Part shown: positions 42,001-51,000 of the stretch, in pieces
Numbering within the stretch: the first letter of the stretch is position 1
Layout: every line of letters begins with the position of its first letter
Assembly (NCBI RefSeq): GCF_001642725.1
Contig: NZ_LSUQ01000003.1
Span: forward strand, 1 to 64,000
Direction: 5' to 3'
DNA: 64,000 nt
Source of the DNA: Ferroacidibacillus organovorans
GTDB lineage: Bacteria > Bacillota > Bacilli > Alicyclobacillales > SLC66
Made by a program: the position numbers

Positions 42001-45000
42001 GCCTTCAGCGCAGGCGAATACGAGTAGTATCCCCGGTTTGAATCCGACGACACCAACCCCGTCACAATCTACACCTGGTGCGGCCGCCAAAGCGTATAAC
42101 AGCAAACCGCAATCTTCTACAAAAAAATCTTCGTCATCCCACCATGCGACGTCAACGACCGCGAGCAAGAAGTCAACGCCGACGCATCACGCACCATCGA
42201 CGGCCGCGTCGACAAGCAGTACCGCTAAAAAAGGGAACACAAAATCTTCAACATCAACCAACACCGCAAAAAAACCAGCTGCGAAGGCAGCTCAATACAA
42301 AGACGGCGTGTTTACAGGCGTTGCGAGCAATCCGTATGGCGGACTCTCGCTTGCGGTCACGATTGCTCACGGGAAAATTGCAGCGGTCAAGATCACGTCG
42401 TATACCATGCACTATCCCCAATCGGTGATTGATCCTCAGCTCCCACAAGAGGCTGTTCAGATGCAGACGTGGAGAATCTATATTGTATCAGGCGCCACAG
42501 CGAGTACGTACAACTTTGCGGAGGCAATGTACCAGGCCCTGAATAAAGCCAAGGCTTGAGGAGTGCGTAAAGATGGTGTCCCAACATAGTGAAGAAACTC
42601 GCCTGCTCTTGGGAACGGTCGTTTCGATTCATCTCGTTGGATCGACTACGATAAAAGACCGTGAGCAGGCACTCGAACGCGCGTTTTCTGCGATGCGTTT
42701 TGTCGAGGAAACCTGCAGTCGATTTGATGAAACAAGCGCGTTGCGCGAACTCTGCCGTCACCCTGGGGTGTGGATGACGGTGCCGGACATCCTGTTTGAG
42801 TCGGTGCGTGTTGCGCTTGAAATGAGTGAACTCACGGCTGGACGGTTTGACCCGACGATTGGCGGGACGCTTGTAAGACACGGATTTACTAGACACTACG
42901 CGACAGGGGAACAGGTGCATGTTGCGGATGACGCGATGGACGAGACGGTAACATACCGTGATCTCGAACTTGATGAGACGATGCGCGCCATTCGCCTGCG
43001 AAAGCCACTCCTGCTTGACTTGGGTGCGGTTGCTAAAGGGCTTGCCGTGGATTTGGCGGCGCGTGAACTGAATGATTTTTCAGGGTTTGCGATTGATGCG
43101 GGGGGAGACGTTTACGTGCATGGCGTCGATCCGCAGGGGGATCTCTGGACGATAGGCATTCAGCACCCAACGGTCAAAGGGGAACAAATCGCGTGGCTAA
43201 AAACAACGGATGTCGCAGTTTGCACGTCGGGAAGCTATGAGCGGCGCAGCCCGCTCGATCCGGAGATTCATCACATTGTGGATCCGGGACGCGGAGTTTC
43301 TGAATCGAGTCTGCTGAGTTGCACGGTCATTGCGCCACTTGCCATGCTGGCGGATGCGGTGTCAACCGCCGCATTCTTACTCGGGGCAGAGCGAGCGCAG
43401 GAGTTTGTGGATGACGTTGAGCTTGCAGGCCTGTTTATCAGTGACACGCTTGAGATCACGATGACCGAATCTGCGAGGGGGTATATGAAATGAGTGAAAT
43501 AGAACGCGAGAGGCGTGCGCCACAGCCTTCATTTGAGCGATTTATAAAGACGCCAAAAGGTACCGTGATGGCGATTTTAGTGGGGATGACGATGATCGCG
43601 GCGCTTCGTCCGCAGGATCACTTTGGACTCGTCAACGCGCTCGTCGCTGCACTGACAGGCGTAGTGGTGGATGGCGCCGTCGCACTTATCATGAAACGCG
43701 GGAAATGGTTCTCAGACGGCGGGATCATTACAGGTTTGATCGTCGCGGATGTTCTCAGCCAGACGACGCCACTCCCCTGGATCGTCGCGATTACGGCGAT
43801 TGCGCTGCTTTCGAAGCATCTCTTGAAAATGGGGCGCAAACCACTGTTCAATCCGGCGGCGTTTGGTCTCCTCATCGCAACGTTTATCCTCCAATCAGGA
43901 CAGAGTTGGTGGGGAAGTCTCGCGCTGATGCCTACGTGGCTCACGTTTGTGGTCATCATCGCGGGAATCTTTATGACGATTCGCGTCAATAAGTTTCCGC
44001 AGGTTGCGGCGTACTTGGGAACGTACTTTGGGTTGCTCTTTATCATGGCGATCTTTCATCTCGGATTGCCGAATGATACACCGGCTGACGCCTTGCGTGT
44101 GCCGTTTGTAAACACAGCGCTGTTTTTAGCGTTTTTTATGGTGACCGATCCGCCGACATCCCCTGCGTCGTATGGACAACAGGTGGTCTTTGGCGTCGTG
44201 ACGGCCGTGGTGGGAACGATCATTTTTGCGACGGTTGGAGGCCTGGCGTATCCGCTGATTGGGTTGCTTGTTGCGAATGTGTGGAAGGCGATCTGGAGTT
44301 TGCGCAGTAGCCGTCAAAAAGATGCCAGTCGCGCAAAGGGTCGCGCGTATGCACCGCAAGCGTCGAACTCTTAATGGGATTTGATTGAAAATCAAAGGTT
44401 ATTTCCATTTGCTCGCAACCTAGGTTCGTGGGCGGTATACTCGGAAGAGAGCATTTGATGGAGGCGGATCATAGCATGGCGGATTTGACGTTTAAGGCGG
44501 ATCTAAAATGGCGCGGCGTTGGTAAAGAAGGGGAAGGCGCGGCGACGATTGCTAAAGACATCACGGTTCGCTATTCAGCGCCGAGTGAGATGGGTGGTAA
44601 AGGGGTCGGGACGAGTCCAGAGGAGCTGCTGATTGCGGCGGTCGCGGCATGCTATAGTGGAACCCTTTTTCGTATGCTGCAAAAACGCGGGCTCGCGGTG
44701 AATGATTTGCAGATTCGCGCAGTCGGTACGGTGACGGGATATCCGCTGAATGGAAAATTTGCGAAGCTCACCGTAAATCCGAGGATCTACGGTGGGGACA
44801 CTTCACAGCGTGTCGACTATCAACAGGTCGCCGAGGCGGCGCGCGACGCGTGCTTTATCGGGAAGGCGATCATCGGGAATGTCGAGTATCTTGTGGGGGA
44901 TGTAACATTTGCAGATGAGTGAAAAAGCAGAAAGAAGCGTCCGAGCCGATCGGATGCTTCTTTCTGCTTTTGTGGATTACAAACCGATGGGGTTGTTGCG

Positions 45001-48000: not shown

Positions 48001-51000
48001 ACGACTCCGTTCTTTTCGCGATAAAAAGTGGTTTTGCGAATTTGTCACATCACTCAAGACTGTATCGCCTCGCCGGTTGTTCTTTAAAACGAACGTTTAT
48101 GTGTTCATTATAACGAACGATCGTAGTGTGTCAAGAGATTGATATAAAGATTTTCCACGATATTTTCATCTTCATTCATTAGTGACGAAACTGTGCGGAT
48201 ATAATTTCGACGGAGAACGACATATGATCATAAGAAGAAAGTTTGGCGCATAGAATGATCGTCGACGCCGTCGATTGCTCACGAAAAACGTCGGAATTGC
48301 GTGGAAATATTCCCTTGTCGGCATAGGAGATAGCGTTTACGATATACATAGCACGAACCCGAAATCGCAAACCCGTTTGAAATGCGGGGACGCAAAGTCT
48401 CAGTTCTAAGGCTGACCTCAAATCGGCTATGAAGGCTGGACCGCAGAAGGTTCCTATCGATTCGGTGGGAGGCAAAGGTCTTCATGTCAAATGCTGAGCT
48501 GATTCAGTCTGAAGGCGTTGATGTCGGGTGGATTTCTTTAATGAAGGAAGCGAAGACACTTGGACTGAGCCTTGAAGAGGTACGCATCTTTCTTTACAGT
48601 AAAAGAGATGTGGTGTATGATTCTTCTTTAAGAACAACAGATACAATCGATCTTAATCAAGAACGATAATCGTTCGCTGATGAGATATGTATAGGGGATT
48701 TGCGTTAGGGTTTTGCGATGAATGTAAGGAGGATCACCATGATCGGAGAAAGGATTCGTTCGCTTCGCATAGAGAGGAATCTCTCGCTCTCCGAATTGGC
48801 CGAACGAGCGGATATCGCAAAGTCCTACTTGAGTGCAATCGAAAGAAATATTCAGCACAACCCTTCGATTCAAGTGATTGAGAAATTGGCAAACGTCTTT
48901 GAACTGCCGATTCAACAGTTATTGCCGGACGAGACGATCAACGCGTTTGGCGAACTCGATTCCGAATGGCTGCAATTGGCCAAAGAAGCGGCAGACTCAG
49001 GAATTAGCAAAGAAGAGTTCAGTCAGTTTCTGGAGTATCAAAAATGGCGGTTGCAGCAGCCGAAGTGAACGGTGCCGGCGAAGTGAATTAGGAAGGGAAA
49101 ATTTCATGACCATTCGATGATAATGCGCGAATGGTATTTTTTTGCGAAGAAAACGAGCTGCCCAGGGGATTAGAGGGCAGATCGTTTTCCATTTCCCTTT
49201 TTAAGGGTCTGTTCGGTGTGAAGGGTTTCCTCGCGGTTTCTGCGACGGCGTTCGTTTCCTTTGAGCGTAATCCGGGATACGGCGATGCTAACTTCATACA
49301 GGATGATCATCGGCACGGCGACGCTGAGATGTGACACAATTTCTGGCGGACTGATGATCGATGCGACGACAATAATCATCATGTAGGCGTATTTTCGCAG
49401 TCCGTGCAACCGTGCGGGCGTCAAGATCCCAAGTTGCGTGAGAAACATGACAACAACTGGCATTTCAAAAATGAGACCGAATGGCAACAGGATGTTTACC
49501 ATAAAGGAAAAGTAATTCTGAGCGGTGATCATCACGACAAAGTTTTGGCTTGCGAGTGTCATGAGAAAGTGCAAAAGAATTGGAAAGACAATGCGATAGG
49601 AAAACAAGACGCCGATGACAAACATGATGAACACGAGCGGGATAAGCTGTAGAGCAATCTTGCGTTCATGGGATTCCAGGGCAGGCTTTAAAAAAAGCCA
49701 GAGTTGAAAGAGCAAGAAGGGCAGAGTTACGCCGAGAGCGCTGAATCCGGCGATCATAAAGTAAATGTGAATCACATCGCCTGGCCCCAAAATCGCCAGG
49801 CGAATCCCTCCAATCGGGAGTGTGAGGGTGTGGTAGATGCGTGTGACAAACGTCAGGGATGCGGCAAACGCAGTCAACAGTGCGATCAATGAGATTATGA
49901 GACGCTTGCGAAGTTCCCCCAGGTGTTCCTGCCAGCGTTTTACCTCAATCGCTGAATTCATGACACGTGGTCGACCGGCGTGGTTTTTTGAAGGAGGTCC
50001 AACCCCGCGACCGGTTTTACGTCATCGAGCGGAATAGGGTTGCTCGGCGTGGCAAGATCGCTTGTCAATTCTTTTGTCGCCGATTTGAATTCTTTGAGCG
50101 TTTTTCCGACCGCTTTGCCGAGTTCAGGAAGTTTTGATGGACCAAAGAAAATTAGCGCAAAAATACCGATCAAGAGAATTCCGGGTAAACCAATGTTTGA
50201 AAACACAGGACAACACTCCTTGGCTTGATTTTTTAGGTGAGACGGGGTGTGATCAGACGTATCACACCCCGCAACGGCGGTTTATTATCCGTTTTGATTC
50301 TGGAACATCGTCAGTGTTTTTGTGGTGTTTGGATCCCACCCGCTGTTGCTCCCGACAGCCGCCTGCACCTGCGCTTTGCTTGGCATGGAAAGCGGGCCTG
50401 TTGTGCCACCTGCAAACTGGTTGGGGAGAACGAACGGCGCGAGCCCCTTGGCGATGGCAGCGACGGATGTGCCACCCGCTTCTTCAAGGTAGAAATCATT
50501 CGGGACATTCAATCCGGCGATCTGGTGACCCATCACGCGATGTTCGCACTCGACGCCGAGGATCTCGCCTGCGAGTTGTGCGAGCGCAGGTTGTTTGAGC
50601 GGGCCTCCGAATTGGTAAATCGCCGCAAGGTATGCTTTGATAAAGGTGACCTCGAGCGCCTGTAGGAGATTGAGATAGCTTTTGCTGTCCTTAAAGGTGT
50701 CAGCGGGAAAGTAGAAGGATGTATACGGGGACTTTGCGCCTGCCCCTTGCAACAATTCAACGTGATAGAACTCAGCGCCGAGTGCACCTTGAAGATACGG
50801 TTTGTTGCCGGCGTTTACGACGGACCCTATGGGAGAATGAAGTCCCGTATAGTAGAATGTAGTCGCGAGACGCTCTGCAGTGAGTGCCGCGCCGATGATG
50901 CTTGCGACAGTGTCTTCGCTCGTGGCGGCAAATGCGCTCGCATCGACGCCCGCGAGTCCGCCGAGTGCGACGGTGGCGCTGAGTAGTCCGACGTTTTTGA

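Follow-up and report, generated by a model that had tools for sequence, protein, structure and literature searches.

A GEMM-I-fold aptamer in the sinI leader of Ferroacidibacillus organovorans and its possible role in SinR-controlled matrix expression

The route by which c-di-GMP reaches the biofilm decision is poorly understood in spore-forming Firmicutes, and in Bacillus subtilis the link between c-di-GMP and biofilm is weak. A riboswitch on the SinI anti-repressor would connect the messenger to SinR in a single, testable step. Spo0A~P turns on sinI at its promoter in B. subtilis (PMC3163267; PMC10134886), and SinR recognises a GTTCTYT-type operator, best as an inverted repeat (PMC3163267). 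The described GEMM-I (c-di-GMP-I) riboswitches include Vc2 and Vc1 of Vibrio cholerae (PMC4744006) and Bc2/cbpA of Bacillus thuringiensis, which ties the messenger to a biofilm or adhesion function in a Bacillus through a structural adhesin (PMC7423583). A c-di-GMP-I riboswitch in the 5' UTR of sinI, the gene for the SinR antagonist, was already listed as "(c-di-GMP)-sinI" for Bacillus methanolicus MGA3 in a 2015 transcriptome paper (Irla et al. 2015, PMC4342826, Table 4). That listing came from RNA-seq and Rfam annotation and, in the available text, gives no platform, sign or conservation. Statements on published systems follow the available excerpts of the papers cited. The literature searched contained no experimental test of a sinI-linked riboswitch.

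A locus of this kind was analysed in a 64-kb stretch of DNA (the window). The aptamer-sinI pairing is conserved and real, but it is not new in kind. B. methanolicus belongs to another family; here the pairing was followed through 26 genomes, with sinI as the constant target, and the target is a regulator where that of Bc2/cbpA is an adhesin. The reading favoured, with moderate confidence, is that a GEMM-I-fold riboswitch in the sinI 5' leader controls initiation of SinI translation, ligand raising SinI and freeing the matrix operon from SinR.

The sinI-sinR pair and the divergent matrix operon

The regulatory pair comprised the following features.

48484..48669, + strand: sinI, 61-aa anti-repressor (Pfam SinI, 38.9 bits against a cut-off of 31.4)
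48739..49068, + strand: sinR, 109-aa repressor (HTH_3, 56.4 bits; SinI domain, 49.3 bits)
48593..48621, + strand: promoter-like site TTTACA-17-TATGAT inside sinI, candidate sinR-only promoter (consensus scan, 10/12 matches)

The SinI domain (PF08671) covered residues 13-37 of the 61-aa product, a length within the expected range of about 40-65 aa. The product did not reach the SinI NCBIfam equivalog (26.9 against a cut-off of 80), and its best solved relative was B. subtilis SinI (1b0n_B, E 0.022). SinR combined an N-terminal XRE helix-turn-helix with a C-terminal SinI-type hook and resembled B. subtilis SinR over its full length (1b0n_A, residues 1-107 of 109, E 3.6e-32), the recognition helices being nearly identical in the alignment. 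The domain common to both proteins suggests that SinI releases SinR from DNA by binding to it. The gene order and families initially assigned downstream of the aptamer were thus borne out by Pfam SinI, HTH_3 and 1b0n_A.

The matrix operon and its promoter region were laid out as follows.

47305..48057, - strand: first matrix-operon gene, in the tapA position (no family match)
46702..47304, - strand: sipW, signal peptidase (TIGR02228, 133.6 bits; SipW equivalog 178.7, below its cut-off of 190)
45967..46581, - strand: TasA/camelysin-family protein, 204 aa (Peptidase_M73, 46.1 bits; TIGR04088 SipW-type signal peptide, 23.5 bits)
44977..45876, - strand: TasA/camelysin-family protein, 299 aa (Peptidase_M73, 32.5 bits; TIGR04088, 22 bits)
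48107..48134, - strand: sigma-70-type promoter TTGACA-16-TATAAT, facing the matrix operon (consensus scan, 12/12)
48079..48094, no strand assigned: SinR-operator-like inverted repeat GTTC-N8-GAAC (motif search of the 64-kb window)
48103..48118, no strand assigned: second such GTTC-N8-GAAC repeat, overlapping the -10 of the matrix-operon promoter

The first open reading frame encodes 250 aa from a TTG or 230 aa from the first ATG; it had no Pfam or NCBIfam match, and its likeness to TapA is one of position only. As in a tapA-sipW-tasA operon, a SipW-type signal peptidase accompanies TasA-family proteins bearing the SipW-type signal peptide. The two repeats are the only GTTC-N8-GAAC sites in the 64-kb window and are no more than 40 bp apart at the matrix-operon promoter; their co-location is the evidence, as the count alone is not above chance (1.46 expected). 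They are putative SinR operators whose layout matches that of the B. subtilis site (PMC3163267), and SinR would probably occupy both.

The locus is like B. subtilis sinI-sinR and tapA-sipW-tasA in its SinI/SinR pair, SipW, adjoining TasA-family genes and GTTC-N8-GAAC on the matrix promoter, and differs in carrying an RNA sensor in the leader where B. subtilis uses Spo0A~P (PMC3163267; PMC10134886). Here the operon diverges from sinI, carries two TasA-like genes and lacks a recognisable TapA; the B. subtilis operon lies downstream of sinR and convergent with it. Because the orientations differ, the neighbourhood, initially annotated as that of B. subtilis, is similar rather than the same, although an adjoining SipW/TasA operon with SinR-type operators is present.

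The aptamer and its association with sinI

The aptamer and its flanking helix were placed as follows.

48356..48448, + strand: GEMM-I (c-di-GMP-I, RF01051) aptamer in the sinI leader (cmscan of the whole window, covariation)
48355..48359, + strand: P1 helix 5' strand GAACC, predicted to pair with 48449-48453 (duplex model)
48449..48453, + strand: P1 helix 3' strand GGUUC, predicted, overlapping the anti-Shine-Dalgarno (anti-SD) arm (duplex model and sequence)

In the cmscan of the 64-kb window, RF01051 was matched at 56.7 bits (gathering score 35; E 2e-08 for the window, 2.2e-10 for the genome) over model positions 1-87 of 87, confirming the full-length aptamer annotated earlier, whose end lies 35 nt before the sinI start. 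The full model is thus matched above the curated threshold for the GEMM-I fold. The same sequence scored 76.7 bits against our own model R1 and is one of eight RF01051 aptamers in the genome. Covariation among 28 sinI-type aptamers backs helices P2 and P3: 96.6% of helix cells were paired and 12 of 17 pairs showed double changes, with 0/500 shuffles as high and slid controls at 19-52%, in an alignment whose fitting to the model biases it in favour of pairing. An energy-picked P1 helix of differing sequence flanks all 18 sinI-leader aptamers of the order; with the register fixed, pairing was 50%, against 38-54% in slid controls, so the helices are not recovered that way. With Vc2 and Vc1 the aptamer shares the fold by covariance model, P2, P3, and the equivalents of A47 and C92, together with a predicted P1 at its flanks; it differs in that C replaces G20, the predicted platform is a short SD hairpin instead of a terminator, and the target is an anti-repressor (PMC4744006).

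Of the 27 other full-length SinR loci in the order (Alicyclobacillales), 17 had an aptamer above the gathering score upstream of sinR on the same strand (50.1-78.2 bits), ending 269-714 nt before sinR. With the window this makes 18 of 28 full-length SinR loci, a count that leaves out a second full-length SinR copy in G008 and replaces the earlier 14/20. Where a sinI reading frame and enough upstream sequence were available, 18 of 23 loci (about 80% of sinI-sinR loci; 10 of 12 genera) carried the aptamer. A SinI reading frame, previously checked between aptamer and sinR in this genome only, occupies that position in 18/18 aptamer-bearing loci, starting 27-46 nt past the aptamer; the 17 others all reached Pfam SinI at E <= 4.3e-6, and 12 exceeded the cut-off. 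No trace of an aptamer was present at five sinI-sinR loci, from genera g3 and g18 of the order, which limits the claim that the arrangement is conserved through the order.

The association is also not confined to Alicyclobacillales, the order for which it was first noted. In a 151-genome sample of the class, 20 genomes from seven other families carried SinR, and in 8 of these the aptamer preceded sinI, with gaps of 15-42 nt that depend on sinI starts placed by us. All nine SinI reading frames tested outside the order exceeded the Pfam SinI cut-off. In three of the 8 genomes, and in Halalkalibacter wakoensis, sinI is convergent with sinR and the aptamer still lies ahead of sinI; because the pairing persists there, sinI and not sinR is the riboswitch target. 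In a tree of 62 aptamers, 26 of the 28 sinI-linked aptamers grouped together, and the sinI label changed twice against a shuffled mean of 20.8 (0/500 shuffles as low).

An 'antisense-acting' c-di-GMP-I riboswitch on a SinR homologue has been described in Paenibacillus sp. FSL P4, where the aptamer is convergent with the sinR-like gene as it is in L085, L091, L097 and L040 (PMC9943018). In these four loci, in contrast to that reading, a Pfam-SinI reading frame of 41-59 aa starts 15-30 nt past the aptamer; their aptamers are therefore sense leaders of unannotated sinI genes.

The G20 contact and the ligand

One position of the aptamer departed from the family.

48366, + strand: C where the ligand-contacting G20 (model position 11) is expected (alignment to the Rfam model and R1)

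Model position 11 is G in 24 of the 28 sinI-type aptamers and in all seven other aptamers of the genome. It is C only in L009 and L010 (the aptamer of the window and that of a congener) and A in two others. The window's aptamer keeps the A47 (48394) and C92 (48444) equivalents and so lacks one of the three Vc2-type contacts (PMC4744006), all of which are kept in 24/28 orthologues. G20 forms a pair with one of the ligand's guanines (PMC5888326), its mutation in Vc2 lowered binding 30,000-fold (PMC4744006) and G20A variants bind cGAMP (PMC7288161); the literature search returned no data on G20C. Ligand and affinity are thus not assured for this copy, which is filed for that reason under the GEMM-I fold rather than as c-di-GMP-specific, with c-di-GMP as its likely ligand. 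Of the initial claim that c-di-GMP is wired by RNA into the SinI/SinR decision, the aptamer in the sinI leader stands and the ligand becomes probable.

These observations would fit drift in this genus, by which the aptamer binds c-di-GMP weakly or prefers another dinucleotide and the link to sinI is weakened or re-targeted in this genome while intact in relatives. We regard this as unlikely. The remainder of the aptamer is intact, every helix included, and the variant is shared by two species of the genus with 92% aptamer identity; being kept in both, it is no fresh lesion. With a wild-type affinity of ~0.011 nM (PMC9049102), a physiological sensor could survive even a large loss. How the G20 contact determines affinity or specificity could be probed in this naturally occurring variant, with C in its place.

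Expression platform and sign of control

The elements between the aptamer and sinI were as follows.

48467..48472, + strand: Shine-Dalgarno sequence (SD) GGGAGG of sinI, 11 nt before the ATG (sequence; duplex with the anti-SD motif -10.2 kcal/mol)
48451..48471, + strand: predicted local hairpin over most of the ribosome-binding site, arms 48451-48459 and 48463-48471, 9 pairs (MFE and centroid folds of 48340-48510; P1-absent state)

No terminator-like site was found in 47900-49300, and the 27-46 nt gap is too short in 18/18 loci for a terminator between aptamer and sinI. In the favoured translational reading, the hairpin would sequester the ribosome-binding site in the absence of ligand, its 5' arm having three bases in common with the P1 3' strand. 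Binding of a dinucleotide, most likely c-di-GMP, would allow P1 to form, shorten the hairpin and free the ribosome-binding site, giving more SinI. SinI would then titrate SinR away from its operators at the divergent promoter, allowing expression of the SipW/TasA operon. Probably sinR is also transcribed from a promoter within sinI; the ratio of SinI to SinR would then be set by the riboswitch. Promoter-level control of sinI may coexist with it.

Folding models compared P1-formed and P1-absent states; they ignore ligand energy, kinetics and tertiary structure, with leader 5' ends set by us and P1 picked by energy. SD unpaired probability rose by at least 0.2 on P1 formation in 10 of the 18 leaders of the order and by 0.08-0.11 in three; four stayed the same and L029, whose P1 is ill-defined, moved in the opposite direction. 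The mean change was +0.30 at the SD against +0.03 in a coding-region control window, the SD exceeding the control in 14/18. In the P1-absent ensembles the main pairing partner of the SD was either a P1 strand or the junction. In the window the change was +0.11 (0.36 formed, 0.25 absent), small because, whether or not P1 is formed, the SD can also pair with the bases immediately preceding the ATG, and the fold of 48340-48510 was not unusually stable (z -1.46). A sensible P1 was found in 5 of 10 leaders from other families, and all five gave SD changes of +0.10 to +0.70. These models suggest a translational ON switch.

Both signs are found in the c-di-GMP-I class (PMC11218506, PMC7423583), and an OFF switch, in which ligand lowers SinI synthesis and high c-di-GMP keeps SinR active, would accommodate L029 and the four unchanged leaders. 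In L084, L101 and L040, from other families, the SD lies just 2-9 nt behind the aptamer or P1, where a ligand-stabilised helix could hinder the ribosome. An OFF switch is nonetheless improbable: it would make c-di-GMP repress matrix genes, contrary to its usual role, the SD lies inside the picked P1 3' strand in 0/18 leaders of the order, and 13/18 model as ON, with P1 strands taking up the SD in the P1-absent state. Control might instead act on the fate of the transcript, through RNA decay or Rho-dependent termination within the leader or the early part of sinI and not through occlusion of the ribosome-binding site. This would fit the small thermodynamic effect in the window, and translational riboswitches often alter Rho access as well, but the constant gap, the SD beside P1 in 18/18 leaders, the SD-P1 strand complementarity and the lack of an intrinsic terminator across 47900-49300 single out the SD as the element under control and make this quite improbable.

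Combined with the translational ON reading, the data would tentatively allow a broader account, which we consider possible but doubtful as a whole. A GEMM-I sub-lineage would have accompanied sinI since early Bacilli; c-di-GMP, not (or not only) Spo0A~P, would directly lift SinR repression of the matrix in many spore-formers; published 'antisense' sinR riboswitches would be leaders of overlooked sinI genes; and G20C would retune threshold or ligand in the genus of the window. The aptamer-sinI pairing occurs in about 40% of the sampled SinR-bearing genomes from outside the order, and the loci above suggest under-annotation of small sinI genes and a need to re-read some riboswitches called antisense-acting.

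The sinI leader and the adjacent matrix operon

Two aptamers of RF01051 (c-di-GMP-I, GEMM-I) were found by an Rfam scan of the entire window, and eight by a scan of the genome. A different RNA family for 48356-48448 was ruled out, as none other reached threshold in the scan of the window. The features of the locus were as follows.

48356-48448, + strand: GEMM-I aptamer ahead of sinI; 56.7 bits against a gathering score of 35, covering model positions 1-87 of 87
48484-48669, + strand: sinI, 61 aa, beginning 35 nt past the aptamer; Pfam SinI 38.9 bits against a cut-off of 31.4
48739-49068, + strand: sinR, XRE-type HTH plus SinI domain

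Residues 1-107 of the 109-residue sinR product aligned with B. subtilis SinR (1b0n_A; E 3.6e-32), and the two recognition helices were nearly identical. Four genes lie divergently upstream of sinI, comprising a family-less ORF, SipW and two Peptidase_M73/TasA-like proteins, both with a SipW-type signal peptide. SipW matched TIGR02228 at 133.6 bits and the Bacillus SipW equivalog at 178.7 bits, slightly below the cut-off of 190. The initial annotation had described the genes and aptamer of this locus correctly, including the aptamer score and the SinI, SinR, SipW and TasA-like matches. The first matrix-operon gene (47305-48057, - strand) had no Pfam or NCBIfam family and may be a functional stand-in for TapA. 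An N-terminal hydrophobic stretch was noted in its product. No RNA sequencing run containing 47900-49100 was found; three metatranscriptome runs contained next to none of its sequence words.

Distribution of the aptamer and its partner gene

A SinR search of 64 genomes of the order Alicyclobacillales gave 28 full-length loci including the window, plus one further full-length place without a locus. In Rfam scans, 17 of the 27 other loci carried an aptamer above threshold (50.1-78.2 bits), always on the sinR strand and ending 269-714 nt upstream of sinR. It had been claimed that 14 of 20 SinR loci carry the aptamer; the recount is 18 of 28. The presence of sinI between aptamer and sinR, earlier known for one genome, held in all 18 aptamer-bearing loci, each having an ORF with a SinI domain at that place. 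All 17 SinI ORFs other than that of the window matched Pfam SinI at E <= 4.3e-6, and 12 exceeded the cut-off.

Ten loci lacked the aptamer. Four had no sinI ORF (L027, L033-L035), one was cut by a contig end (L036), and five were sinI-sinR pairs: L012, L013 (genus g3), L016, L022, L025 (genus g18). No aptamer was found in these five by full-model search with our own covariance model (best E 1.3). The aptamer was thus present in 18 of 23 assessable sinI-sinR loci and in 10 of 12 genera. Conservation on this scale rules out that aptamer and sinI occur together by chance. Three GTTC-N8-GAAC repeats were seen upstream in L012 and L013 instead, one of them immediately before sinR.

The covariance model was built from 25 aptamers (18 sinI-linked and seven others of the window's genome) and had matches in 91 genomes of a 151-genome sample of the class Bacilli. 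A SinR-like gene at E <= 1e-20 was present in 20 genomes of this sample that lie outside the order; this survey rests on a wider genome search, a homologue search from a single SinR protein having given 13 loci only. An aptamer followed directly by a SinI ORF was found at the SinR locus in seven of the 20. In an eighth (G152), a short contig carries aptamer and sinI, and the separate contig with sinR breaks off 151 nt upstream of that gene. These eight genomes span seven families, and all nine SinI ORFs tested outside the order passed the Pfam SinI cut-off. The pairing had been presented as a trait of the order. This was not borne out; it is class-wide, occurring in 8 of 20 SinR-bearing genomes outside the order.

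Three of the eight genomes, like Halalkalibacter wakoensis (L040), have sinI and sinR in convergent orientation, and sinI is still the next gene behind the aptamer.

Loci with an aptamer and a 41-59-aa SinI ORF convergent with sinR (positions within each locus)
L085: 1117-1381
L091: 1135-1397
L097: 2165-2402
L040: 1165-1448

The constant partner of the aptamer is sinI, not sinR, because sinI follows the aptamer even where it is convergent with sinR.

Prior records exist for the riboswitch class and the Sin module, and also for the pairing of aptamer and sinI. In the accessible text of Irla et al. 2015 (PMC4342826), a putative c-di-GMP riboswitch is placed ahead of sinI in Bacillus methanolicus MGA3 and '(c-di-GMP)-sinI' is listed among the riboswitches of that strain. 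For a Paenibacillus, a 2023 survey (PMC9943018), as far as its accessible text goes, proposed that a c-di-GMP-I riboswitch is 'antisense-acting' on a SinR homologue; the aptamer is there arranged relative to sinR as in the four convergent loci. Judged from those loci, our analysis suggests that aptamers called 'antisense-acting' on sinR would be leaders in sense orientation to a small sinI that escaped annotation. The literature searched yielded no experiments on a sinI riboswitch, subscription journals lying outside the coverage. The aptamer-sinI feature is real, conserved and functionally coherent. What is added here is sinI as the invariant target of the aptamer, a modelled translational platform with a probable ON sign, putative SinR-type operators on the neighbouring matrix promoter, and a non-canonical C at the G20 contact in the window's genome.

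On a quick maximum-likelihood tree (62 aptamers, 91 columns), 26 of 28 sinI-linked aptamers grouped together, with an unstarred SH-aLRT of 84. This tree required two changes of the sinI label; shuffled labels required 20.8 on average, and none of 500 shuffles needed so few. The alignment is short, and the comparison set was made up of the aptamers scoring highest against a model built largely from sinI-type ones.

Two further arrangements were observed outside the order. The whole aptamer-sinI-sinR module occurs twice in tandem on one contig (L084 and L101, G102:C5, about 2.5 kb apart), with P2 loop and P3 shortened in both aptamers and lower scores (47.1 and 45.8 bits). In L100 the aptamer (2034-2135) and the SinR-like gene share a strand, the aptamer lying 171 nt downstream, and no SinI ORF follows it.

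Expression platform, sign and ligand contacts

The gap between aptamer and start codon was 27-46 nt in 18/18 leaders of the order, and no terminator-like site was found across 47900-49300. Together these points indicate that control would be exerted at the sinI ribosome-binding site. The elements of the putative platform in the window were as follows.

48355-48359 with 48449-48453, + strand: closing helix P1, GAACC with GGUUC
48451-48459 / 48463-48471, + strand: arms of a nine-pair hairpin over the Shine-Dalgarno sequence (SD), in the MFE and centroid folds

The SD is GGGAGG at 48467-48472, and its GGGAG is covered by the hairpin. P1 and the hairpin would compete for 48451-48453.

SD accessibility was compared between the ensemble with the P1 core forced and the remainder (full ensemble minus P1-forced), using transcripts cut 3 nt before P1. 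When P1 was forbidden by a hard constraint, its bases simply stayed single-stranded, and ensemble subtraction was used in place of that fold. The modelled gain with P1 was at least 0.2 in 10/18 leaders and 0.08-0.11 in three, including the window (0.36 with P1 against 0.25 without); accessibility was unchanged in four and lower in one. The mean change was +0.30 at the SD against +0.03 in a coding-region control stretch, with the SD above control in 14/18. Without P1, the modelled SD partner was the 5' P1 strand in L011, L021, L026, L028 and L032, and the 3' tail and P1 strand in L009 and L010 (window and congener), L014, L017, L019, L020 and L024. In other families, all five leaders with a sensible P1 changed in the same direction, the SD becoming more accessible; L040, L081, L084, L085 and L101 were left out of this count for helices of 3-4 bp, misplaced helices or a mis-assigned SD. 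A count of P1 pairing in a fixed register was no better than in slid registers, because junction lengths vary among lineages. The modelling favours an ON switch, within a thermodynamic model with assumed 5' ends and related leaders, and weakly for the window itself. Such a sign would also be consistent with c-di-GMP ordinarily acting in favour of matrix production.

In P2 and P3 of 28 sinI-type aptamers, 96.6% of cells were paired (slid controls 19-52%), with two-sided changes in 12 of 17 pairs; no shuffle was as high on either measure. The ligand contacts G20, A47 and C92 of Vc2 (PMC4744006, PMC5888326, accessible text) fell by model alignment at 48366, 48394 and 48444. Positions 48394 (A) and 48444 (C) match A47 and C92. 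Position 48366 is C, as in the congener; the equivalent is G in 24/28 sinI-type aptamers and in all seven other aptamers of the genome, and A in L015 and L031 of the order (aptamer position 11). Mutation of G20 in Vc2 is described as lowering binding 30,000-fold (PMC4744006), and G20A GEMM-I variants as binding cGAMP (PMC7288161); nothing was found in the literature on G20C. Because wild-type affinity is given as about 0.011 nM (PMC9049102), a copy weakened by C at 48366 could still sense physiological levels. With C at this contact, the ligand of the window's aptamer is presumed from its orthologues.

Promoters, SinR-type repeats and other aptamers

Two promoter-like sites were identified by sequence.

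48134..48107, - strand: matrix-operon promoter, perfect TTGACA-16-TATAAT
48593-48621, + strand: promoter-like site within sinI, 10/12 consensus matches

The second could drive sinR transcription independently of the riboswitch; an internal promoter for sinR is likewise present in B. subtilis. No convincing sigma-70 promoter was found for sinI, the best site (48139-48166) having 9/12 matches. By eye, a TATACA without a -35 was seen at 48343-48348, and one 6/7 match to a Spo0A box near 48206.

The 64-kb window has only two copies of GTTC-N8-GAAC, 48079-48094 and 48103-48118, a number not above chance (1.46 expected). The evidence is co-location: both copies lie within 40 bp on the matrix promoter, and the second overlaps its -10. 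They are laid out like the inverted repeat described as the preferred binding site of B. subtilis SinR, with a half-site that agrees with its GTTCTYT consensus (PMC3163267, accessible text). The repeat was present upstream of the sinI leader in 10/28 SinR loci of the order. With SinR-type repeats on the matrix promoter, a local link from SinR to the matrix operon is supported in silico.

Behind the second window aptamer (39855-39938, + strand; c-di-GMP-I, 61.5 bits) come a terminator-like hairpin with a T-run and then a GAF-GGDEF-EAL protein (40004-41758, + strand). This platform looks transcriptional, in contrast to the sinI leader, and the unit 39855-41758 resembles a loop through which c-di-GMP would feed back on its own turnover. 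Other aptamers of the genome (among L001-L007) lie ahead of a TPR/HD-domain protein, a FapA-like protein, an OmpR-type winged-helix protein, a 255-aa family-less protein, a second GAF-GGDEF-EAL protein, and a 73-aa ORF followed by a HisKA_3 histidine kinase.
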